Below are positions 7,360 to 24,173 of a stretch of DNA of 24,658 nucleotides, piece after piece. Origin of the DNA: a virus (lineage: Duplodnaviria; Caudoviricetes); IMG/VR virus record IMGVR_UViG_3300042376_000178, positions 1 to 24,658 of that record. One strand, 5' to 3'. The notes under the pieces were generated by a model that worked only from the letters and a program-made list of their open reading frames with translations, ran no database searches and was not told the DNA's origin. Every line of letters starts with the position of its first letter. Positions within the stretch are counted from its first letter, which is position 1. The position numbers and the translations under genes were made by a program.

Positions 7360-7441
7360 ATCATTGACTGAAAAGGTCTTGATTGTTATAATGTTCATTG
7401 GGTTTGTGGTAATCATTTGCCTGTTGCCCGATCTGTATTAG
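7352..7441 (+). CDS. 29-aa single-pass membrane peptide
   Basis: MDESLTEKVLIVIMFIGFVVIICLLPDLY; AAGGAG RBS; not in the ORF track. Confidence 0.55.
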   Translation: MDESLTEKVLIVIMFIGFVVIICLLPDLY

Positions 7442-7750: not shown

Positions 7751-8332
7751 ATGCCAGAAACCGCCGCAAAGCCATCAAAACGAGCTACAGCAGCCCCAAA
7801 GCCCAAAGTCAAGGGTAAGGTAGCCCAACAGCCTGTAAGCGCACCCAAGAGGACAGGAAGACCCAGCAAGTACACCCCAGAGCTTGCGGCAGAAATTTGT
7901 GAGCGGATCGGGAAGGGTGAGACACTGCGCCAGATATGCAGGGACGAGCACATGCCGCATTGGACCAATGTGTACGAGTGGTTGAGTCGCGATGAGGGTC
8001 TTTCGGTACGGGTCGCGCACGCACGCGAGATTGGTTACGACGCCATAGCCGAAGAGTCACTGGCCATCACCGACAATGAGCCGCTGGCCGTGTTTGACGA
8101 GGCGGGAAACAAGCGCTACGACCCCGGCAGCATCTCATGGAACAAGAACCGCGCCGAGCACCGCCTGAAGCTGTTGGCCTGCTGGAACCCCAAGAAGTAC
8201 GGCACCAAGGTGGCGGTGGGCGGTGACCCCGGCAACCCGATCCAGATCGAGGCTCAGGTGGAGGCCGACAACTTCCTTGCCGCCATCATCAAAAACGCGG
8301 AGCTGAAGCGGCAAGTCTCGGCAAATGAATGA
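7751..8332 (+). CDS. terS: Terminase small subunit
   Basis: 'GRPSKYTPELAAEICERI..GETLRQIC...MP....VYEW', '..PKKYG' (Sf6-gp1-like); overlaps the terL start. Confidence 0.85.
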   Translation: MPETAAKPSKRATAAPKPKVKGKVAQQPVSAPKRTGRPSKYTPELAAEICERIGKGETLRQICRDEHMPHWTNVYEWLSRDEGLSVRVAHAREIGYDAIAEESLAITDNEPLAVFDEAGNKRYDPGSISWNKNRAEHRLKLLACWNPKKYGTKVAVGGDPGNPIQIEAQVEADNFLAAIIKNAELKRQVSANE

Positions 8333-10571
8333 CATCGCGGCGATCGTCTCTGACCCGGAGGTCAAGAGGCACCTAGCGCTGGCCAGCCCCGAGTACCGTC
8401 TCGCGTGGGCTTGGCGCATGTCATGGTTCAGCATCCAGCATACCCATCAGATTCTCCCGCCGGGCGACTGGTGGTCAATCTGGCTGATGCTGGCTGGCCG
8501 TGGAGCTGGGAAAACCCGCACCGCCGCCGAGCAGATCGCGTGGTGGGCCTATACCGAGCCGGGCACGCGCTGGCTCGTTGCAGCCCCAACCAGCGCCGAC
8601 GTGAAAGCCACCTGCTTCGAGGGTGACTCCGGCCTGCTTAACGTGATCCCCAAGGGACTGGTGGCCGACTACAACAAGCAGTACCACGAGCTGCGCCTGC
8701 ACAACGGCAGCCTGATTAAGGGCATCCCGGCGTCCGAGCCTGAGCGCTTCCGGGGGCCGCAATTCCACGGCGGATGGTGCTGTACCCCAGAGACGGTGAT
8801 TGCGTTACCCGGTGGCGGTGGAATGGCGATCAAGGATGTTCAGGTCGGCGACATGGTTATGACACGAAATGGCCCCCGCAAAGTGATTGCCGCTGGCGTA
8901 TCTGGCAACCTGAATGACTTGGCGACTATCGGATGTGGAGATACGAGCTTGACAGTCACGGTGGATCACCCGATACTCGTTGGTGACCAGTGGATTTCCG
9001 CTGGCGACATCAAGGTAGGGGATTTTGTATGGGCTACAAGTACATCGGCAGCAGGCTCGCTCACAGGGTCATCTATGAGCGCCACAAGGGTCCAATCCCC
9101 AAGGGATGGGTCGTTCACCACAAGGATGAGGACAAGGGCAACAATGACCTTGACAACCTTGAAGCAATGCCTCGCAAAGAGCACCAGCGGCTTCACGCAA
9201 CGGGCAGGCCAGCCTCTGACGTTCAAAAGGCAGTTGCAAGCAGAACCCTTGAGTCGTTGCGCACCCCAAAGCCAGCCAAGTGCATCCAGTGTCAAACCAA
9301 CTTTGTCTCGACGTCTGCTGGAGAGGTTGGTAAGTTCTGCTCTCGTTCGTGCCTTGAGTCTTGGCGTGGCAACAAATTCACCCCAGAGCTGCGCACCTGC
9401 CTCGTCTGCGAAGGCGAATACCTTGCCACGAAACGATTCCAGCGGTACTGTTGCAAGCAGTGTTGCAACAAGTCCACAGTGCGGACCTATCGAACTGAGG
9501 CAACTGGCGGTACACCGCGTCGAACGCTTGCCAAACTCGCTGACGTACAACCTGACAGTTGAGGGTGAGCACGAGTTCATCGCCAACGGTATCGTGGTTC
9601 ACAACTGCGACGAGCTGGCCGCGTGGGATTACCTGCAAGAGGCGTGGGATCAGATCCAGTTCGGGATGCGGCTGGGCAAGCGCACCCGCATGATCTGCAC
9701 CACCACCCCGCGACCAAAGGACCTGATCATCGAGCTGATGGGCCGGGAGGGCGACGACGTGGTCATGACGACCGCCTCGACCTACGCCAACCTCGGCAAC
9801 TTGTCCGACAACTTCAGGAAACAGATCCTCGCCTACGAGGGGACCAAGCTGGGGCGGCAGGAGATCTATGCCGAGATTATTGACCCCGAGGAGGGCGGGA
9901 TCGTCAAAAGGGATATGTTCAAGCTCTGGCCTGCCGGGCGGGCGTTCCCCAAGTTCGAGTACATCCTCCAGAGCTACGACGTGGCCACCAGCGAGAAGGC
10001 CCAGAACGACCCGACCGCCTGCATCACCTTCGGCGTGTTCAAGCCGCAGGACGGCCCCATGTCGGCCATGATCATCGACTGCTGGCAAGAGCGCATGATG
10101 TATCCTGACCTGCGCCCCAAGGTCATCGAGGAGTACGAGACCGTCTTCGGCGAGGGCAAGGACCGCAAGCGGGTTGACCTGCTGCTGATCGAAGACAAGA
10201 GTGCCGGGATCTCGCTGATCCAAGACCTCCAGCGGGCTCACCTGCCGGTCAGAGCGTACAACCCCGGGCGGGCCGACAAGCTCCAGCGCCTGAACATCGT
10301 CTCCAACATCATTGCCCGTGGCCGGGTCTGGATCCCCGAGTCCGACCACCGAAAGGGCTACGTCAAGGACTGGGCAGAGGGGTTCGTCAGCCAGATCTGC
10401 TCGTTCCCCGAGACCACGCACGACGACCTTGTGGACGCCTGCACTCAGGCCCTGCGCTACCTGCGGGATGCCGGGTGGCTGGAGATCGACCCGCCGCCCA
10501 ATGAGGACTGGGACGAGGACGACTTTGCCGACAGCGGCAAACAAAAGCGAGTCAACCCCTATGCAGTCTGA
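8325..10571 (+). CDS. terL: Terminase large subunit, intein-containing (748-aa precursor, 472 aa after splicing)
   Basis: Walker A 'AGRGAGKT'; Walker B reconstituted as 'GPQFHGGW|CDELAAW'; motif III 'TTTP'; RNase H-like acidic motifs 'YDVA', 'IEDK', 'HDDLVDA'. Confidence 0.95.
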   Translation: MNDIAAIVSDPEVKRHLALASPEYRLAWAWRMSWFSIQHTHQILPPGDWWSIWLMLAGRGAGKTRTAAEQIAWWAYTEPGTRWLVAAPTSADVKATCFEGDSGLLNVIPKGLVADYNKQYHELRLHNGSLIKGIPASEPERFRGPQFHGGWCCTPETVIALPGGGGMAIKDVQVGDMVMTRNGPRKVIAAGVSGNLNDLATIGCGDTSLTVTVDHPILVGDQWISAGDIKVGDFVWATSTSAAGSLTGSSMSATRVQSPRDGSFTTRMRTRATMTLTTLKQCLAKSTSGFTQRAGQPLTFKRQLQAEPLSRCAPQSQPSASSVKPTLSRRLLERLVSSALVRALSLGVATNSPQSCAPASSAKANTLPRNDSSGTVASSVATSPQCGPIELRQLAVHRVERLPNSLTYNLTVEGEHEFIANGIVVHNCDELAAWDYLQEAWDQIQFGMRLGKRTRMICTTTPRPKDLIIELMGREGDDVVMTTASTYANLGNLSDNFRKQILAYEGTKLGRQEIYAEIIDPEEGGIVKRDMFKLWPAGRAFPKFEYILQSYDVATSEKAQNDPTACITFGVFKPQDGPMSAMIIDCWQERMMYPDLRPKVIEEYETVFGEGKDRKRVDLLLIEDKSAGISLIQDLQRAHLPVRAYNPGRADKLQRLNIVSNIIARGRVWIPESDHRKGYVKDWAEGFVSQICSFPETTHDDLVDACTQALRYLRDAGWLEIDPPPNEDWDEDDFADSGKQKRVNPYAV
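8778..9605 (+). mobile_element. Intein (276 aa) inserted in the TerL Walker B motif
   Basis: Block A 'CCTPETVI', 'IKDVQVGD'; block B 'LTVTVDHPI' (TxxH); block F 'TYNLTVEGEHEFIANG'; block G 'VVHN' followed by Cys+1. Confidence 0.95.
9029..9562 (+). CDS. HNH homing endonuclease with two C-terminal zinc fingers, nested out of frame in the intein
   Basis: 'AHRVIYERHKGPIPKGWVVHHKDEDKGNNDLDNL...EHQRLH' (HNH_3-type); CIQC..FCSRSC and CLVC..YCCKQC. AGGGG 7 nt before ATG 9029 (GTG 8990 is an alternative start); TGA at 9560-9562. Confidence 0.9.
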   Translation: MGYKYIGSRLAHRVIYERHKGPIPKGWVVHHKDEDKGNNDLDNLEAMPRKEHQRLHATGRPASDVQKAVASRTLESLRTPKPAKCIQCQTNFVSTSAGEVGKFCSRSCLESWRGNKFTPELRTCLVCEGEYLATKRFQRYCCKQCCNKSTVRTYRTEATGGTPRRTLAKLADVQPDS

Positions 10572-11137: not shown

Positions 11138-11328
11138 ACCAAGAACCTCCCAAGATTGAAATGTGCGCCAACCGTTTTGAGCTGATCAGCCGTTGGGGAC
11201 AACCTGTTGACAAGATCTGGGCCCGGGACATGCTTGAGCGCTGGCTCCAGCAGAGATTGGACTTGACAGACCCTAGCGTTTATGATGGCGGCATTCCCGC
11301 GAAAGGTCCTGAGCATGCAATTTCCTGA
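11134..11328 (+). CDS. Hypothetical protein
   Basis: ATGA coupling; overlaps the start of the large gene. Confidence 0.6.
   Translation: MNQEPPKIEMCANRFELISRWGQPVDKIWARDMLERWLQQRLDLTDPSVYDGGIPAKGPEHAIS
11258..11286 (+). promoter_or_regulatory. Putative promoter for the large gene/head operon
   Basis: TGGACT (11258) -17- TATGAT (11281); an overlapping TTGACA at 11263 is only 12 nt from the -10. Confidence 0.4.
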
Positions 11329-14300
11329 ACTCGCCCCGATCAAGCCGATCAACCTGCCGGATCTGAAACCGATCGGGACTGATTCGGTTCCCAAGAAGCA
11401 GTCACTGCAGGAGTGGCATGCGGCTGGTGGTGGAGTTCCGAAGCAGTACAAGGGCCGTGAGCATGTCTGGCACGCCAAGGTCAAGAAGTTCGCCGAGGGC
11501 GGTGAGGCTCATATGGGAGCCGGTGGTGTCATGAAGGGCTTGATAGGGGCCTACAACAAGGCGGACAAGGCCGCTGACGCAGCAATAGCTGCCAAGAAAG
11601 CGCTGCCTGCCGCCGAGCGGGACGCCAACCTCCAGAAGTTCCTTGAGCCCAGCAAAGCCCCGATGCGCCTGTACCACGGCACGACCGCCACCGAAGGCGG
11701 CAAGGGCAAGGAGGCTATCCGCAGTCTTAAACCTAGCAAGGAGGGCGCACTCGGCTCTGGGGTGTACCTGACCCCCAGCTCGGCCCATGCAAGCGGCTAC
11801 AGCGGCATTCCTAACGACGAGGCCATTGAGATGATGCTGCGTGACCCGCGCAATCAAGACCTTGGACTGAAGGCGCTAAACCAGCGCAACTCTGGCAATG
11901 TTCTGCCATCGCAGGAGGGCGGCAATATGTTGCCCGTCCATGCCCAGATACGGAACCCGCTGATCATTGAAGGCACTCACGGCGATCCTATGATCGAGGC
12001 GCTGATGAAACTAGGCATGGACGAGGACAAAGCCTCCCGCATGGTTGAGCGTGCTTACGACCAGAAGGGCTACATCGGCAAGGAAGTTGAGTCCCGCGCC
12101 CGTGCCGCTGGTTATGACGGCCTGATGCAGTACCGCAATGGCGACCTGTCCGAAGTGGTCTCCTACAACCCCAACACAATCAAGAGCGCAATCGGAAACC
12201 AAGGCACCTATGACACCAGCATCCCAGACCTGAACAAGGCTCGTGGCGGTGAGGTCCACATGCAAAAGGGTGGGAAGTCCGGTGCCCTCGTAAGCATTGC
12301 CGAGGCGGTGGCCGCAGCCAGCAAGAAGGCCGACGAGATCCTTGCGGCCAAGAAGGCGGCAGACGAGGCCACCAAGCCCGCCAAAGCAGCCAAGCCAACG
12401 AACTACAGCCCGAAGGTGCTGGAATCAACTGCCGCACGATTTGCGGACAAGATTTCAGCGGCCAGCCCAAAGTTGAGTGACGAAGAGGTTGCCAAGAAGG
12501 CAATGAACCAAGCCGTTAAAAAGCTGGAATGGGAGCGGACGCAAAAGCCTGCGTTAGAAAAAAAGTACGGACCGTTGAGCAAGTCTTCTTTTTCTGAGAG
12601 CAACCCCAACAAGATGCAGAACACCGCTGAGGTGGTGGCAGAACGCAAGCGCAAGGCCAACGAGTTTCTTGATCAACCCACTGAGCCATGGTCGCCCCCG
12701 CGAGCGGAGCTGCAAGCGTTTGACCGCTCATCCATCAAGGACGCTTTAGAGGGTTTCCCCGGCGTGTCGCAGTCCACCTTCCCTCGCGATAAGCCCAGCC
12801 GCGCCAGCACCTCGCACGTTGAGGAGCTGTACACAGATCCAGAAAATCGCGCCTTGATTGAGAAGCAGATCAAACGTGGCTTGCCATTAGGCGGGGAGTC
12901 GTTCTACGCTTCCTTGTACCCCGTGAAACAGGCGGTGCTGGAAGCAGGCATGCCTGCCGAGAAGTTTGATCAATGGATCCACGGTTTGGCTCCGGCGTCG
13001 GCACGCAATTCCATTATGAACGAAATGGCGGTTGGCCAGTTTCTGCGTCAAATGAATGCGCGTGGCATTCCATTGACCGAAGAAAATGTTGCCAGAGAAA
13101 TGGCTATATACGCGGATAAATTTGGCATGGGCTTGCCGTTGATGCCGGTTCACCGAGAAGGCGTGGCTAAGGTGCTGGAGGGCGGGCTGAACCTGCGCGA
13201 TCAGAATTTGGCAAACATACCAACTAACTACAAGATTCCAACATACGGCAGTCAAAAAGCTGGTGACTTTGCCAATTCGGTGGTGCTTGACGTTCATGAG
13301 GCTGCAGGCCACACACAAGGCAGTCGATACCACCCCTATTTCAATGAGCAAGGCGGGTTCGGCAATACCGAATACAACGCAGGCGAGCAAGGGTTGCTGG
13401 GAATTGCCAAGGACCTTGGCATCCCCGGCGGCATGGCGCAGGCTGGGCGCTGGTTTGGTGGAGGCGAGCTGACGGGGTTGAAATCGCCCCGGGGCGATGC
13501 GCTTGATCTGCTTGAGAAGCAGGTGGCTTACACGCTCCAGCAAAAAGGCATCCAACCTAACCCGGCCAACGTGCGCGCAGAAGTGCTTCGGCAGATTGAG
13601 ACGGGTGAAGGCGATCTCTTGCCTTGGTATCGCAAGGAAGGCATGCCTGATGTCCGTCAGACGGGCTTACAACGAGCTGAAGGCGGCGAGATCCACAAGG
13701 CCGAGGGTGGTTTAATTGAAGAGCGTCGCTTTGACGGCGGCGGCATGGCGGCGGCAGACTTTGCCGGGCCGGAGGACGACGGCGGCAGCCTTGACAAAGC
13801 CAAGCTGATGACCAAAATTCTTGCTGAAGAAGCTAAAAAGCAGGGCAGCAAAGAAGCGGGAAGCCTCAGCAAACCACGCGCACTCACAGACCTGCTAAAC
13901 CGTGGCGTGCTGGCCAACAACCCGATAAGCGCAGGCATTGACCTGCTGAACATGGGTTTGATACCCCTTGACATATTGGGTTCCAAGCTGACGGGACGGG
14001 ACATTAAGGTATCCAGCGACAAGCCGTTCCTTGGGTCCGAGTACGTCAAAGACCTGATGAACAAGTACAACGTCACGTCGGGCGAAGAGCGCCCCATGAT
14101 GGAGACCGCCCTGAGCTTTGCCAGCCCCGCAGGCATGGTCAAGGGCGCAATGAAAGCGCCGGGCGCGGTTACAAAGGTGACAGAGGCGTTAACCTCAAGT
14201 AAAATGCCACCTCTGGCCACAGAGGCGAAGACTGCGCAAGCAGGGAAACCAACAGGAGCTACATATGCAACAAAACAAGACGGACCGTTCTACCGGGTCA

Positions 14301-15790
14301 GCCAATCAACACCTGACCAAAGCTCGGAAACTGCGCGAGGAGTTAGAGAAGCAGATGGGCTACAAGCCCAAGGGGCTATCGGAGCAGGACCAAGCCAAAC
14401 TGGACAACGAGTTCCGAAACAGTTTTCGGATGAGGAAGTGGCAGGGCTAATTGCCAGCCCCAACAACAAACCACTCAAGCTCGCCCAGAGCTACACCAAG
14501 GAGCAGCGCGGCGCAGATTTTATGACGCCCAAGCTGCCCGCATCTAGTTTGGCCAAACAGTCAGCCATTGGCCGCACGCACATGGCCGCAGTCGAAGGAT
14601 CGCCCGCCTACAAGAACGCCATCTTTGACGCCTACGCTCAAAGCATGCCCGACGTGCTTCAGCAGGCCGGGGCAAAAAATTACGACGACTTGCTGGAAAA
14701 AGCTTATCGCCAGTTGGCCAAAGAAACCAGCGACCAGTTTGACCGACTGCCCGTAAGCATGTCTTTCCACAAAAGTGGTGAGGGCAACTACAACGGCGCA
14801 CGGGAGATGGCCAGCGACGTTCATGGCAACGACCACTTGTACGTCTTCCAAGGCGGCGACAAGCACGACTTCCTGAACCAAGTTGATCCCCGCACTGGGC
14901 TGAATGAGAACGAAAAGTTCCGCGCAGTCCACGACCTGTTTGGTCATGCCATTCGCGGCAACGAGTTTGGACCCGCAGGCGAAGAGAAGGCTTGGGGCAT
15001 TCACAAACAGATGTACAGCCCGCTGGCCCAGTTGGCTATGACGGCAGAGACCCGTGGCCAAAACAGCGTGGTTAACTACACCCCACTTAACGCCCGCCTG
15101 AAGGCTGAGGTTTCCCAGTTGCGCGAGATCCAAATGGAAGCCAAGCGACGCGGCGACACCCAGCGTTACAAGCTGGCCACCGAGGGTATTAAGGATGCCT
15201 TCCAAGGTTTCCAGTACGCCCCGCAGAAGGCCATCCTGCTACCGCCCGAATACGTTAGCGCTGACTACAAGGGTGGCATGCCCGACTATGTTCGCAAGCT
15301 GATCACCCCAGAAAAAGGAACAGAAACCCAATCGATTTTGACTCACTACAGCAACAAGCCCGACTTGAAATTTACCGACCCTAAGCGGTACGGTACTGGC
15401 ATCAAGGGAGCAGAAGCCGAGCGCTTAACCTCCCCAAGTGCCGTGCGCGATCGCTCGTACTTCTACATGGGTGAGCCGGGCACGGTGTCTGCTGAGCCGG
15501 GGCTTGGCGTCAACCGTTACCGTGGCGAGGCGTCAAGCCTGTACGACATCACGCAAGACCCTCTGGACTTTCGAGTGCTGGCCCGCGAGTCCAACCGCAC
15601 GCCCTACACTTCCAAGTACAACCAAGGCGTCACCAGCCCGCTGCAGGATGCCAATGACATGGAGCGCCTTGTGCGCGAATACGGCTACCAAGGCATGGCC
15701 AATCCCAAGGCGTCCAAGCCAATGGCCATCATGTTTGACCAAACACCAGTCGAGCGCTACAAGCGTGGCGGACTGTCATCAATAAAGTGA
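11315..15790 (+). CDS. Large multidomain (polyvalent) protein with ADP-ribosyltransferase-like domain(s), probably virion-delivered
   Basis: ATG 11315 has an AAGGT RBS (ORF open from 11282). 'RLYHGT...GVYLTP...GYDG...EVVSYNPNTIKSAIGNQGTYD' resembles ART-PolyVal; 'VVLDVHE' domain; 'FRAVHDLFGH...GEE' metal-binding motif; C-terminal 'LTHYS...RSYFY...GYQG' domain. Confidence 0.75.
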   Translation: MQFPELAPIKPINLPDLKPIGTDSVPKKQSLQEWHAAGGGVPKQYKGREHVWHAKVKKFAEGGEAHMGAGGVMKGLIGAYNKADKAADAAIAAKKALPAAERDANLQKFLEPSKAPMRLYHGTTATEGGKGKEAIRSLKPSKEGALGSGVYLTPSSAHASGYSGIPNDEAIEMMLRDPRNQDLGLKALNQRNSGNVLPSQEGGNMLPVHAQIRNPLIIEGTHGDPMIEALMKLGMDEDKASRMVERAYDQKGYIGKEVESRARAAGYDGLMQYRNGDLSEVVSYNPNTIKSAIGNQGTYDTSIPDLNKARGGEVHMQKGGKSGALVSIAEAVAAASKKADEILAAKKAADEATKPAKAAKPTNYSPKVLESTAARFADKISAASPKLSDEEVAKKAMNQAVKKLEWERTQKPALEKKYGPLSKSSFSESNPNKMQNTAEVVAERKRKANEFLDQPTEPWSPPRAELQAFDRSSIKDALEGFPGVSQSTFPRDKPSRASTSHVEELYTDPENRALIEKQIKRGLPLGGESFYASLYPVKQAVLEAGMPAEKFDQWIHGLAPASARNSIMNEMAVGQFLRQMNARGIPLTEENVAREMAIYADKFGMGLPLMPVHREGVAKVLEGGLNLRDQNLANIPTNYKIPTYGSQKAGDFANSVVLDVHEAAGHTQGSRYHPYFNEQGGFGNTEYNAGEQGLLGIAKDLGIPGGMAQAGRWFGGGELTGLKSPRGDALDLLEKQVAYTLQQKGIQPNPANVRAEVLRQIETGEGDLLPWYRKEGMPDVRQTGLQRAEGGEIHKAEGGLIEERRFDGGGMAAADFAGPEDDGGSLDKAKLMTKILAEEAKKQGSKEAGSLSKPRALTDLLNRGVLANNPISAGIDLLNMGLIPLDILGSKLTGRDIKVSSDKPFLGSEYVKDLMNKYNVTSGEERPMMETALSFASPAGMVKGAMKAPGAVTKVTEALTSSKMPPLATEAKTAQAGKPTGATYATKQDGPFYRVSQSTPDQSSETARGVREADGLQAQGAIGAGPSQTGQRVPKQFSDEEVAGLIASPNNKPLKLAQSYTKEQRGADFMTPKLPASSLAKQSAIGRTHMAAVEGSPAYKNAIFDAYAQSMPDVLQQAGAKNYDDLLEKAYRQLAKETSDQFDRLPVSMSFHKSGEGNYNGAREMASDVHGNDHLYVFQGGDKHDFLNQVDPRTGLNENEKFRAVHDLFGHAIRGNEFGPAGEEKAWGIHKQMYSPLAQLAMTAETRGQNSVVNYTPLNARLKAEVSQLREIQMEAKRRGDTQRYKLATEGIKDAFQGFQYAPQKAILLPPEYVSADYKGGMPDYVRKLITPEKGTETQSILTHYSNKPDLKFTDPKRYGTGIKGAEAERLTSPSAVRDRSYFYMGEPGTVSAEPGLGVNRYRGEASSLYDITQDPLDFRVLARESNRTPYTSKYNQGVTSPLQDANDMERLVREYGYQGMANPKASKPMAIMFDQTPVERYKRGGLSSIK
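14177..14205 (+). promoter_or_regulatory. Internal sigma70-like promoter
   Basis: GTGACA (14177-14182) -17- TAAAAT (14200-14205). Confidence 0.55.
14265..14450 (+). CDS. Overprinted 61-aa helical protein in the +1 frame of the large gene
   Basis: AGGAG 6 nt before ATG; promoter 60 nt upstream; the host frame reads as a low-complexity linker here. Confidence 0.55.
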   Translation: MQQNKTDRSTGSANQHLTKARKLREELEKQMGYKPKGLSEQDQAKLDNEFRNSFRMRKWQG

Positions 15791-18477: not shown

Positions 18478-18656
18478 AAACCCTCTCGGACTTGATTGGC
18501 GGAATTAAGGCTAAGCAGGCTGAAATAGCCTCGTCCCTCGTTGCTGGTAATGCGACGAACTGGGAGTCTTACACCCGACTGGTCGGTCACAACGCGGGCC
18601 TGCAAGAAGCCCTCGACATCCTAAACAACCTGATGAAGGAAGATGAAAATGAGTAA
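18474..18656 (+). CDS. Hypothetical helical protein
   Basis: Coupled to genes on both sides. Confidence 0.7.
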   Translation: MKTLSDLIGGIKAKQAEIASSLVAGNATNWESYTRLVGHNAGLQEALDILNNLMKEDENE

Positions 18657-19080
18657 CCCGGTAGCTTCTAACGAAGCTGAGATGGCTTGGGCATTTCCGA
18701 GCGTAGATCCCGGTGCAAAACCTCTTGGCGGACGTATTTTGGTACAACTCCGCCGTTCAAAAAAGGCAACAACTGCATCCGGGATCATCTTGGTCGAAGA
18801 GACTAAAGAGACCGAAAAGTGGCAAAACATGGTGGCAAAGGTCATTGAGATTGGCCCACTGGCGTTCAAGCATCGTGACACGATGGCATCTTGGCCAGAG
18901 GGATCTTGGTGTTCTGTTGGCGACTACATCCGCGTCCCCAAGTGGGGCGGCGATCGCTGGGAAATTAAAGTCCCCGGCGAGGATGCGCACGAAGACTCCG
19001 CCCTGTTTATGGTCCTAAACGACCACGAGGTGATTGCAAAGCTCACCGGTGATCCACTTGCAGTGAGGGCTTTCCTATGA
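18649..19080 (+). CDS. groES: GroES/Cpn10-like co-chaperonin
   Basis: 'KPLGGRILVQ', mobile loop 'TTASGIIL', 'VIEIGP', 'VGDYI..PKWGG', 'LNDHEVIA'. Confidence 0.85.
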   Translation: MSNPVASNEAEMAWAFPSVDPGAKPLGGRILVQLRRSKKATTASGIILVEETKETEKWQNMVAKVIEIGPLAFKHRDTMASWPEGSWCSVGDYIRVPKWGGDRWEIKVPGEDAHEDSALFMVLNDHEVIAKLTGDPLAVRAFL

Positions 19081-22150: not shown

Positions 22151-23128
22151 ATGCCGCAATTCTCAGACGATCTCTTTTTGGGTTCCGCACTTACCGTTCA
22201 AGGTATGGACGCCTACCCTGCTGTTTCAACTTTTACTGGCTCAATCGCTACCACCACATTGACCGTCACCGCGATGCTTTCGGGTGACCCAATTTTTGTT
22301 GGTATGTATCTTGATAGCTCAACGTCCCTTACCAATGGCACTACCATTACCGCTTTTGGTACGGGTTCAGGTGGTGTAGGTACTTACACGGTCAGTGCCT
22401 CGCAAACTGTAGCAAGCGCCACCATCATTGGTTCCGGGAATGCTCTGTTGCAAAACCCGTCGCCCATGAGCGTTGGTGTTGGCCCGTTGGGTCGTGTCTA
22501 TATTTGGGACGCTGTACCGCAAGCCAAGCTGACAACCAATATTGTTGCCGCTGTCATCACAACTGCTACCACGCTTACGCTGGCCGCAGGCGCAGGTGTG
22601 ACATCAGTCACCACAGCTAGTGGCGCTACAGTTTTGCAACTTGACTGCCCTCGTGCTGTGTCTACAACCACAGGCGCTGGCTCCCCGACCAGTGTCAACA
22701 TCACGGTTTCTGGTTTTGACTACTACGGTCAAGCCATGAGCGAGGTGATTGCAACAGGGGCGGTGGCGTCAACGACGGTCAATGGTAAAAAAGCCTTTTT
22801 CCAAATCTCCAGTGTTACTGCTTCGGGCGCAAGCGTGGTGACCGTTGCGGTGGGTACAACCGACATCTTGGGTGCGCCACTGCGCATCACTGATGCCGGG
22901 TACATCACTCGCGCTGGTTGGAACAACACCTTAGCCGAAGATGCTGGTACTTTTGCCGCCGCCGCTACTGCCACAGCCACCACCACCACTGGTGATGTCA
23001 GGGGCACTTACCTGCCCTCCTCGGCGGCAGACGGCATCAAGCGTCTTGTGATGGGAATAGCCCTGCCAGCAATTGCTGTAGGCCCGAATGCAACCCGTGT
23101 TGGCGCTCTTGGCGTCACACAAGCATAA
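22151..23128 (+). CDS. Virion structural protein (Thr/Ala/Gly/Val-rich beta protein)
   Basis: AAGGAG RBS before ATG at 22151; composition and position after MCP. Confidence 0.7.
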
Positions 23129-23138
23129 GGAGAACGAC

Positions 23139-24173
23139 ATGGGTCAATTCAAACCAATGGTCAAGATGGAGACCACAGAGCCCTCAGTTGAGCTGAAGCT
23201 CAAAAAGGGTGGCAAGGTAGCCAAGAAGGCTGACGGAGGCATGATGGGCGCTCCTATGGGCTCTATGCCCGCTCGTGGCGGCATGATGGGTGCCAAGGCT
23301 CCGATGCGCCCGCCTCTGGCAATGCGTCGCCGTGCGATGCGCGGTATGCCGTCCGGTGCGGGTCCTGCCGGTCCGATCGGTGGCGCTGCTCAGATGCAAT
23401 CTGCAATGCCTCCTTCAATGCCGCCTCCGATGCCGTCCGCCCCGATGAAAAAAGGTGGCAAGGCTGACATGGGGCAAGACAAGGCCATGATCAAAAAGGC
23501 TTTCAAGCAGCACGACATGCAAGAGCATAAGGGCGGCAAGGGCACGTCCCTCAAGCTCAAGCACGGCGGCAAGATGGCCACCGGCGGCGTAGTGAACGGC
23601 CAAGGCGGCTTTGCTACCGGCGGTGTGGTCAATGGCCAAGGTGGGTTTGCCACTGGTGGCGTTGCCAAATCAAACGGCGGCGGTTACAAAAAAGGCGGCA
23701 AGATCAAAGGCATGATGGACGGCGGCATGGCTGGTGACGGCATGATGGGTGGCGGGATGATGGATGATGCCGCTTACAAAAAAGGTGGTGCCCCAAAAAA
23801 AGCCTACGCGGCGGGGGGTACTGTTAACTCAGGCCGTCCCGTCGCGATGCCGCAAGGCAACAAAAAGCCATCACAGCCCGTGAGGATTGACCAATTGTCC
23901 GGTACCTTTAAACAGGGCGGCACGGTCAAAATGAATGGCGGTGGCTCTTCCTCTGACAAGGGGGAGGATATGTCCAAAGGTGCTTATGACAAAGCGCCAA
24001 AGTACAGCCGTGACGTTGAGGATGCATTAAATCCTGTTGGCATGATCAAAGAACTGGCCGGTAAGGCAAGGGACTTCTTCATGCCCAAGAAGACTGCTGA
24101 CAGTGTGACCAAGACCAAAGAGTCAGTCACCGTGACGCCCGCCAAAAAACGCGGTGGTTCGGTGAAGTGCTGA
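23139..24173 (+). CDS. Gly/Met/Lys-rich low-complexity protein with ~15 xxGG motifs
   Basis: AAGGAG RBS before ATG at 23139; LKKGG, MKKGG, MATGG, FATGG, YKKGG, YAAGG, FKQGG etc. Confidence 0.75.
   Translation: MGQFKPMVKMETTEPSVELKLKKGGKVAKKADGGMMGAPMGSMPARGGMMGAKAPMRPPLAMRRRAMRGMPSGAGPAGPIGGAAQMQSAMPPSMPPPMPSAPMKKGGKADMGQDKAMIKKAFKQHDMQEHKGGKGTSLKLKHGGKMATGGVVNGQGGFATGGVVNGQGGFATGGVAKSNGGGYKKGGKIKGMMDGGMAGDGMMGGGMMDDAAYKKGGAPKKAYAAGGTVNSGRPVAMPQGNKKPSQPVRIDQLSGTFKQGGTVKMNGGGSSSDKGEDMSKGAYDKAPKYSRDVEDALNPVGMIKELAGKARDFFMPKKTADSVTKTKESVTVTPAKKRGGSVKC
23577..23663 (+). repeat. 36-nt-period coding repeat (ATGGVVNGQGGF x2 + partial)
   Basis: Units start at 23577, 23613 and 23649; the differences between the two full units are synonymous. 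Confidence 0.8.

Follow-up and report, generated by a model that had tools for sequence, protein, structure and literature searches.

An HNH nuclease gene in the +2 frame of a phage terminase intein

The gene for the large terminase subunit (TerL) in the IMG/VR virus record IMGVR_UViG_3300042376_000178, a 24.7-kb phage sequence detected in lake and freshwater metagenomes, is interrupted by an intein with a long, featureless middle part, and this raises the question of what that middle part encodes and how it is expressed and spread. The record was analysed as one window, i.e. over its whole length of 24,658 nucleotides (nt). Our answer, which we regard as highly probable, is that the intein houses an HNH homing nuclease gene in the +2 frame relative to TerL; this gene would be expressed separately and would home into empty terL alleles, with TerL restored by protein splicing. 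A preliminary description of the same DNA had already proposed a dual-coding element of this type.

The terL open reading frame (ORF; 8325-10571, + strand) encodes 748 amino acids, is free of stop codons throughout, and leaves a protein of 472 amino acids after removal of the 276-residue intein. The parts of the locus are:

8325..8777, + strand: TerL N-extein of 151 amino acids with Walker A motif GRGAGKT and C-terminal end FHGGW (Terminase_6N)
8778..9605, + strand: class 1 intein, Cys1 to His-Asn, 276 amino acids, an 828-nt mobile unit (from motifs, Pfam, structure model and exact joint)
8778..9029, + strand: N-terminal splicing region, blocks A and B with T61-x-x-H64 (invariant columns in 27 sequences; ratio of nonsynonymous to synonymous substitution rates, dN/dS, 0.12-0.20)
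9029..9562, + strand: endonuclease of 177 amino acids with an HNH_3 domain and, at the C terminus, two Cys4 zinc fingers (FCS/TRASH-like), offset +2 to TerL
9045..9479, + strand: linker rich in Ser, Thr and Ala, read in the TerL frame as intein residues 90-234 and expected to be disordered (predicted local distance difference test score, pLDDT, mostly <50; S+T+A 38%)
9495..9605, + strand: C-terminal splicing region, blocks F and G (conserved columns, AlphaFold2 model)
9606..10571, + strand: TerL C-extein, starting with Cys(+1)-Asp-Glu and continuing into the RNase H-like nuclease domain (Terminase_6N, Terminase_6C)

The intein corresponds to TerL residues 152-427 and is inserted at the Walker B motif, between GGW and CDE. 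We take the Asp-Glu pair at the start of the C-extein to be Walker B with the catalytic carboxylate; with an insertion just upstream of this pair, imprecise loss of the intein is lethal. The intein starts with C-C-T-P, carries T61-x-x-H64 and ends with V-H-N, followed by C-D-E; residues C1, T61, H64, H275 and N276 are invariant in all 27 aligned inteins and the +1 residue is Cys, which by sequence (Cys1, block B TxxH, terminal His-Asn, Cys at +1) places it in class 1. The match to Pfam Intein_splicing (E 1e-8, 35.5 bits) is slightly below the cut-off of 35.8 bits. In the AlphaFold2 model the pLDDT is about 90 or more in both splicing halves and below 50 at residues 90-124 and 132-234, and a Foldseek search with this model retrieved solved inteins (1am2, E 1.6e-6), which points to a HINT fold. 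A Pfam search found no nuclease family in the TerL frame of the intein, and a tblastn search of GenBank phages with the intein protein gave zero matches. The preliminary description was thus correct in placing a complete class 1 intein (Cys1 at 8778, TxxH, VHN/C at 9605) across Walker B, and in stating that the TerL frame between the splicing halves holds no nuclease.

The nuclease is encoded by the same DNA, in an ORF that runs from an ATG at 9029 to a TGA at 9560-9562. Its product matches HNH_3 (E 2e-19) across residues 9-54, and its two zinc fingers have the spacing C-x2-C-x13/15-C-x3-C. The 25 aligned homologues all retain the eight zinc-finger cysteines as well as H30, H31, N38, N43, H52 and H56; the set H30, H31, D33, N38, N43, H52 and H56, as expected for a beta-beta-alpha-metal core, is invariant both in these 25 and in a wider set of 12. 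Among nucleases, the intron-encoded nickase I-HmuI (1u3e) is the best sequence match (E 0.009) and also the best, albeit weak, fold match (E 0.06). The residues aligned to the I-HmuI active-site stretch are invariant and presumably have catalytic or metal-binding roles. HNH_3 was the only family returned by the Pfam search of the HNH protein, a limit of E 0.1 bringing up no Endo VII family. A second HNH copy was not found in the same contig, which is part of a record estimated to be about 44% complete. An antisense ORF (8966-9586) was rejected as a coding candidate and has no Pfam match. The profile search of both frames that the preliminary description had called for gives the splicing family in the TerL frame and HNH_3 in the +2 frame, and the 177-residue protein with two Cys4 fingers that it had read there is recovered in full.

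Searches of IMG/VR yielded 48 unique inteins at the same site: 45 of 275-295 amino acids, one of 330 amino acids and two mini-inteins. All 46 full-length inteins have a stop-free TerL frame and an intact HNH ORF at +2; the third frame contains 6-30 stops. In the 41 sequences that have both exteins (802 of the 820 pairs fell in bins), the HNH frame shows a dN/dS of 0.15-0.23 over the overlap and the TerL frame one of 1.0-1.27; the most variable base is TerL codon position 2, which is the HNH wobble position. After synonymous recoding of the TerL frame the HNH frame was open in at most 1.4% of trials (P at most 0.014). Of the 395 HNH codons that end in TA or TG, none precedes a base that would create a host-frame stop, an observation equivalent to frame openness. 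The comparison establishes that both frames are kept open and that the HNH frame is under purifying selection, and over the overlap the TerL frame appears to be constrained only by stop avoidance; the Ser/Thr/Ala-rich linker may therefore be regarded as a by-product of the nuclease codons. Dual coding with selection on the nuclease frame, for which per-frame dN/dS had been suggested as the check, is borne out, and so is the view of the alternative-frame peptide as junk, which also agrees with a pLDDT below 50 over most of the linker.

More distant relatives have the same arrangement. With a profile of 12 HNH proteins, 160 related loci were compared: 80 were the top-ranking ones among 200 confirmed in genome contigs, and the other 80 the top-ranking ones among 430 from a viral collection of which part was scanned. 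In 93 of them (8 of these are the same intein family) an ORF with intein motifs contains the HNH ORF at +2, and in 14 the HNH ORF is nested at +2 without an intein-profile match; another 25 have intein pieces nearby, mostly split among those listed, and 28 are apparently free-standing. No HNH ORF among the 160 lies in frame or at +1. From the genome contigs, 50 covering ORFs were available, of which 43 match an intein/Hint family and 37 a terminase family. The record titles, mostly labels of metagenome-assembled genomes (MAGs), fall in Bacteroidota, Bacillota, Actinomycetota, Pseudomonadota, Cyanobacteria, Chloroflexota, Planctomycetota and archaea; the two nearest genome-contig matches are short MAG contigs with disagreeing labels (Betaproteobacteria and Aquiluna). 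The phages TJE1 (L089), phiCDHM19 (L090) and Highwayman (L091) have a +2 HNH ORF inside a terL intein at the terminase nuclease site, and their GenBank records annotate neither intein nor HNH gene; that standard annotation would miss the nuclease had been expected in the preliminary description. In phiCD119 (L092) an intein with a +2 HNH also lies inside terL, but the terL frame is interrupted and annotated as two genes.

Several further forms were observed among the relatives. A second terL-family intein, located at the HDDxVDA/C nuclease motif, also carries an HNH-zinc-finger ORF at +2; three of its four loci have a sigma-70-like TTGAC(T/G)-17-CATAAT about 52 nt upstream of the HNH start, and L007 carries both terL inteins. 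In split forms, TerL-IntN ends with a stop and is followed by the HNH gene and by IntC with a short C-extein, which overlaps the HNH tail at +2. These are found mostly in Bacillota-labelled or gut-type prophages, IntC often lacks an obvious ATG, and in L023 the IntC frame is apparently broken; they are a possible new split-intein family. A shorter, one-zinc-finger relative (L021:2144-4198) lies at +2 in a more distant TerL intein inserted 3 residues downstream, after WCDEL. At L345:2-811, on a contig edge, a related HNH lies at +2 in an ORF that matches N6/N4 methylases and has no intein match, a ShiLan-like case. The loci of the first two forms are:

L073:2983-3930, L007:4430-5370, L079 and L087 (spans approximate): second-site inteins with a +2 HNH-zinc-finger ORF
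L022, L023, L283, L285, L303, L304, L308, L325, L390, L395, L407 and L420: split-form loci

How the nested gene might be expressed is suggested by signals that all lie in codons of the splicing domain:

8949..8977, + strand: predicted sigma-70-type promoter TTGACA-N17-GATACT, on block B codons L58-T59 and P65-I66-L67
8987..9004, + strand: putative 7-bp leader hairpin, with which the nuclease mRNA would begin if transcribed as predicted (pairing in 27 sequences)
9017..9021, + strand: Shine-Dalgarno-like (SD) AGGGG inside the intein codons K-V-G-D, 7 nt upstream of the ATG

In all 45 homologues the HNH ORF begins at intein nt 249 or 252 (44 ATG, one GTG). The start is composed of the synonymous third base of a Val, Leu or Ile codon, which is A or G in 45 of 45, and a Trp or Cys codon. 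The SD duplex energy has a median of -7.6 kcal/mol over 45 homologues, as compared to a background of -2.5 kcal/mol. At the other end, the TGA (GTT GAG, V261-E262) and the HNH tail overlap block F; 38 of 45 inteins stop with a TGA located 43 nt before the intein end, and the remaining 7 have other in-frame stops at most 12 nt from that place. The preliminary description had located this stop correctly, and of the two starts that it had offered, the ATG at 9029 is conserved, in support of an independent start, whereas the GTG at 8990 was rejected, HNH-frame stops occurring between GTG and ATG in many homologues.

The promoter and the leader hairpin were not among the earlier observations. A promoter scan gave a single sigma-70-like match, with 10 of 12 consensus positions (0.3 expected in shuffles). 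All 46 full inteins use TTG for Leu58, a codon with a background of 0.11-0.26, and 36 of them use ATA for Ile66, with a background of 0.07-0.10. In a set thinned to 30 sequences of <85% mutual identity TTG is still found in 30 of 30, and the only two single-codon columns among 72 conserved amino-acid columns, T56 (ACG) and L58 (TTG), are located at or just before the -35 box. Both the start codon and the -35 box thus show conservation at synonymous sites. The Thr56 ACG (8943-8948 region of the window) is invariant in 29 of 29 sequences, giving a motif ACGAGC-TTGAC that could be an upstream element or a regulator site. The hairpin is paired in 187 of 189 cells (27 sequences), a value reached by 4 of 500 shuffles, and one pair has a two-sided change; it is suggestive only. 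The SD is predicted to be more open on a short leader than on the long terL mRNA in 25 of 29 cases (0.46 vs 0.33). Occlusion of the SD on the long mRNA was not used as an argument: longer contexts pair more anyway and the consensus fold has no stem over the SD.

From these signals we consider it probable that the nuclease is made from a transcript of its own. Separate translation from the terL mRNA only, with the TTGAC/ATACT conservation due to a protein-binding site, an RNA structure or the like, is the best of the competing explanations and yet unlikely. Consensus matches are not equal to function, the -10 box varies, and the equally invariant ACG at T56, 5' of the -35 box, hints at a further motif. 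However, in 46 sequences the positions of two rare codons coincide exactly with the -35 and -10 boxes, spaced by 17 nt, and similar promoter-like matches precede the nested HNH gene in 10 of 72 distant inteins, as compared to 1 of 72 control regions and 3.1 expected. Moreover, such matches occur at one fixed place in three of the four second-site inteins, and the -10 box is lost in one of the mini-inteins (L070).

The distribution of the element points to mobility. Empty GGW-CDE alleles exist in relatives, the insertion being precise and in frame, and such alleles are common, with an estimated 400 or so stored stretches against 63 filled ones (from patterns of unequal strictness). The extein nearest to that of the window belongs to an empty allele (93%), the best carrier being 85% identical. 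Two carriers, L038 and L040, have inteins that are 95.7% identical in exteins that are 84.4% identical, and the L038 extein is 97.5% identical to that of the empty L210; several other pairs also have near-identical inteins within more divergent exteins. On a 120-row extein tree the 41 carriers need 25 changes, which is far from one origin, and approximately unbiased (AU) tests on a 40-row extein tree rejected four of five intein-defined groups, L037+L046 being kept (p 0.078). The sequences thus have a patchy, extein-incongruent distribution that fits homing, though general recombination can contribute to this pattern, and mobility of the whole element, as implied by the earlier view of a selfish element, is supported. 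Of the two mini-inteins, L024 has lost most of the HNH gene by an internal deletion that spares the two ends of the ORF and leaves the TerL frame intact, and L070 has an extein 96% identical to that of a full carrier; both therefore look derived from full forms. That a free-standing HNH gene once invaded a mini-intein, as the preliminary description suggested, may be the origin: none of the 160 related loci is in frame and 28 are apparently free-standing, which would agree with it, but the two mini-inteins at the site look derived and thus give no direction.

A nuclease domesticated as a packaging cofactor of the terminase, with no role in homing, is very unlikely. HNH nucleases adjoining terminase genes are known (PMC3592412), and terminases make up the 37 of 50 covering ORFs mentioned above, but close phage relatives do without the whole element, the family is HNH_3 and I-HmuI-like, the distribution is incongruent with that of the extein, and L024 has lost most of its HNH gene by deletion without damage to the TerL frame. 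Slightly less likely still is a ribosomal frameshift by which the HNH would be reached from the TerL frame as a fusion without separate initiation. The two frames share strand and transcript and the HNH frame is open far 5' of the ATG in some homologues; yet the ATG occupies a synonymous site in 44 of 45 inteins with a GTG in the remaining one, and an HNH-frame stop lies one codon 5' of the ATG in 5 of 41 listed full inteins (L032, L041, L051, L054, L072). A canonical intein with the HNH in frame, misread because sequencing or assembly indels compensate each other, can practically be dismissed, and so can an intron at the RNA level: although the sequencing runs were examined as contigs only, the offset is identical in 46 divergent inteins and conserved across homologues, relatives in isolate phage records show the same layout, no indel is listed inside the intein in the 8 runs, and the window has no match to group I or II introns or any other RNA family of Rfam at gathering thresholds. 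In 5 of these 8 runs contigs join 8777 to 9606 exactly, an 828-nt joint that represents the empty allele of relatives, and one run (X24, probably DNA) has the empty allele only; no RNA data set was listed among those containing the sequence. The two-frame layout is no assembly error: the preliminary description's concern about indels is settled by the conservation across homologues, and the contigs agree.

A number of observations weigh against the proposed interpretation. In the window alone, the TerL frame stayed open in 0.2-41% of trials of the reverse recoding test, depending on the null model, and with the strictest, codon-preserving shuffle its openness is not significant (P 0.41). The SD motif lies on intein-constrained codons and is partly forced by the intein G-D motif, and the hairpin lies on codons that the intein constrains as well. 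The -10 box is weaker than the -35 box, with TATTCT or TATCCT in 10 of 46 inteins, and in distant relatives the block B position holds a promoter in 1 of 72 cases, as compared to 2 of 72 controls. Carriers are more clustered on the tree than shuffled labels (25 vs 34 changes). The 40-row subset and the groups for the AU tests were picked after the trees had been seen, and AU tests on a quick 119-row tree left two groups unrejected, with a suboptimal free search that makes those results unreliable. Finally, ordinary phage recombination can also separate an intein from its flanks.

Taking both sides together, we favour the intein with a separately expressed +2 homing gene, for which transcription, translation, splicing, cleavage and the cleavage site are inferred. 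The terL mRNA would be translated into the whole precursor, with the TerL frame kept stop-free, and the intein would excise itself with the disordered alternative-frame linker to give the 472-residue TerL with Walker B restored. The nuclease would likely be transcribed from the block B promoter and translated from the ATG at 9029. It would nick or cut intein-free terL during co-infection, and repair of the cut allele would copy the 828-nt unit.

An out-of-frame LAGLIDADG homing endonuclease (HEN) in a dnaX intein was reportedly described by Gorbalenya in 1998. The two-frame layout is already known, both for Endo VII-like (Gosselin et al. 2025) and for LAGLIDADG nucleases (Phillips, DeSimone, Gogarten 2026, bioRxiv 10.64898/2026.09.14.751524), so that the case is less novel than the preliminary description implied. 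Similar to such non-canonical inteins with a HEN in a separate frame, the present element has an intact +2 nuclease ORF between the splicing halves of an open host frame; the nuclease frame is under purifying selection, and the element shows signs of transfer. It is not a canonical full intein, as there is no in-frame nuclease family and 0 of 160 related HNH loci are in frame, and the unbroken TerL frame distinguishes it from split inteins and fractured genes.

Gosselin et al. describe Endo VII-like nucleases (IPR004211) in frame 3 of actinophage inteins and propose an invasion model; their HNH cases are in frame and out-of-frame integrations are termed extremely rare. Contiguous inteins, same-strand frame-3 nucleases, phage hosts, many non-canonical TerL cases and signs of transfer are shared with our element, and the frame-3 layout and invasion model correspond to what the preliminary description had inferred. 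In contrast, the nuclease described here is HNH_3 with two C-terminal zinc fingers, its only family match and best fold match being HNH_3 and I-HmuI, respectively; this sets it apart from the Endo VII-like frame-3 subtype on family assignment, not on direct sequence comparison. Furthermore, 93 of the 160 related HNH loci are nested, and a promoter is predicted, a word with 0 occurrences in their main text. Phillips et al. describe a cyanobacterial dnaX intein with an out-of-frame LAGLIDADG HEN, which likewise has a +2 ORF between the splicing halves, a putative SD, a disordered in-frame middle, omega values that are low for the nuclease frame but high for the host frame, and coexisting full, mini and empty alleles. 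It differs in nuclease family and in its chromosomal host gene, and no promoter is described ('promoter', 'HNH' and 'terminase' have 0 occurrences).

A hidden alternate-frame HNH gene outside any intein is described by Arsenault et al. 2025 (PMC11855218), with an open host frame and homing-like spread; there the host gene is non-essential, without a splicing domain and without a detectable ribosome-binding site, whereas the host gene in our case is essential and shielded by an intein, and the nuclease gene has a predicted SD and a predicted promoter. In the fractured genes of Dassa et al. 2009 (PMC2677866), a free-standing HEN gene with its own control signals lies between the halves of a split intein and overlaps the C-terminal half with its 3' end, a form also found among the related HNH loci; their host gene is broken, splicing is in trans and the nucleases are GIY-YIG or Vsr-like, unlike the continuous host frame here. 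With the I-HmuI family (1u3e) the protein shares the HNH_3 core and the aligned active-site stretch, the weak match being limited to this core, and the DNA-binding part here is predicted to be the two Cys4 fingers. Open-access PMC and bioRxiv texts yielded neither an out-of-frame HNH within an intein nor a promoter inside one, although the supplementary tables of Gosselin et al. could hold cases. New here are the HNH family of the nuclease, the wide distribution of this family and the predicted promoter that coincides with block B.

Other genes of the window include the one for the terminase small subunit, which adjoins terL:

7751..8332, + strand: terminase small subunit gene terS (Pfam Sf6_terminase, E 2e-29)

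A sigma-70-like TTGACT-17-TATAAT lies in the intergenic region upstream of terS (7364-7392). Between terL and the probable portal gene there is a 1502-residue ORF (11282-15790) with an ART-PolyVal domain (E 6.5e-11), which shares AxGG/MxxGG repeat motifs with a 361-residue ORF (23088-24173). The head module contains a Cpn10/GroES-like gene (18643-19080, E 1.9e-7).

A more far-reaching interpretation, to which we give an even chance as a whole, is that the splicing domain serves as the expression cassette of the nuclease gene and that the HNH-zinc-finger proteins form a lineage of nucleases specialised for an out-of-frame existence within inteins. The promoter in block B, the 5' hairpin, the SD, the start and the stop in block F would all be written in splicing-motif codons, so that the homing gene would be transcriptionally autonomous, with a timing separable from that of the late terminase and independent of splicing. 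The lineage would always be at +2, common in terminase inteins of many phyla and missed by annotation, and its split relatives would be the predicted link between contiguous and split inteins. For terminase inteins in general, the findings mean that long ones with a featureless middle are often not decayed but contain an intact, selected nuclease gene that annotation skips, and the breadth of the nested HNH is at odds with the extreme rarity that has been published for such integrations. An internal promoter, as predicted here, offers a testable answer to the question of how hidden homing nucleases are expressed, which was raised in PMC11855218, and the contiguous, mini, empty and split forms make models of nuclease acquisition by inteins testable. 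The element also provides a natural example of a 530-nt gene overlap that would be cheap because one of the two frames is spliced away.

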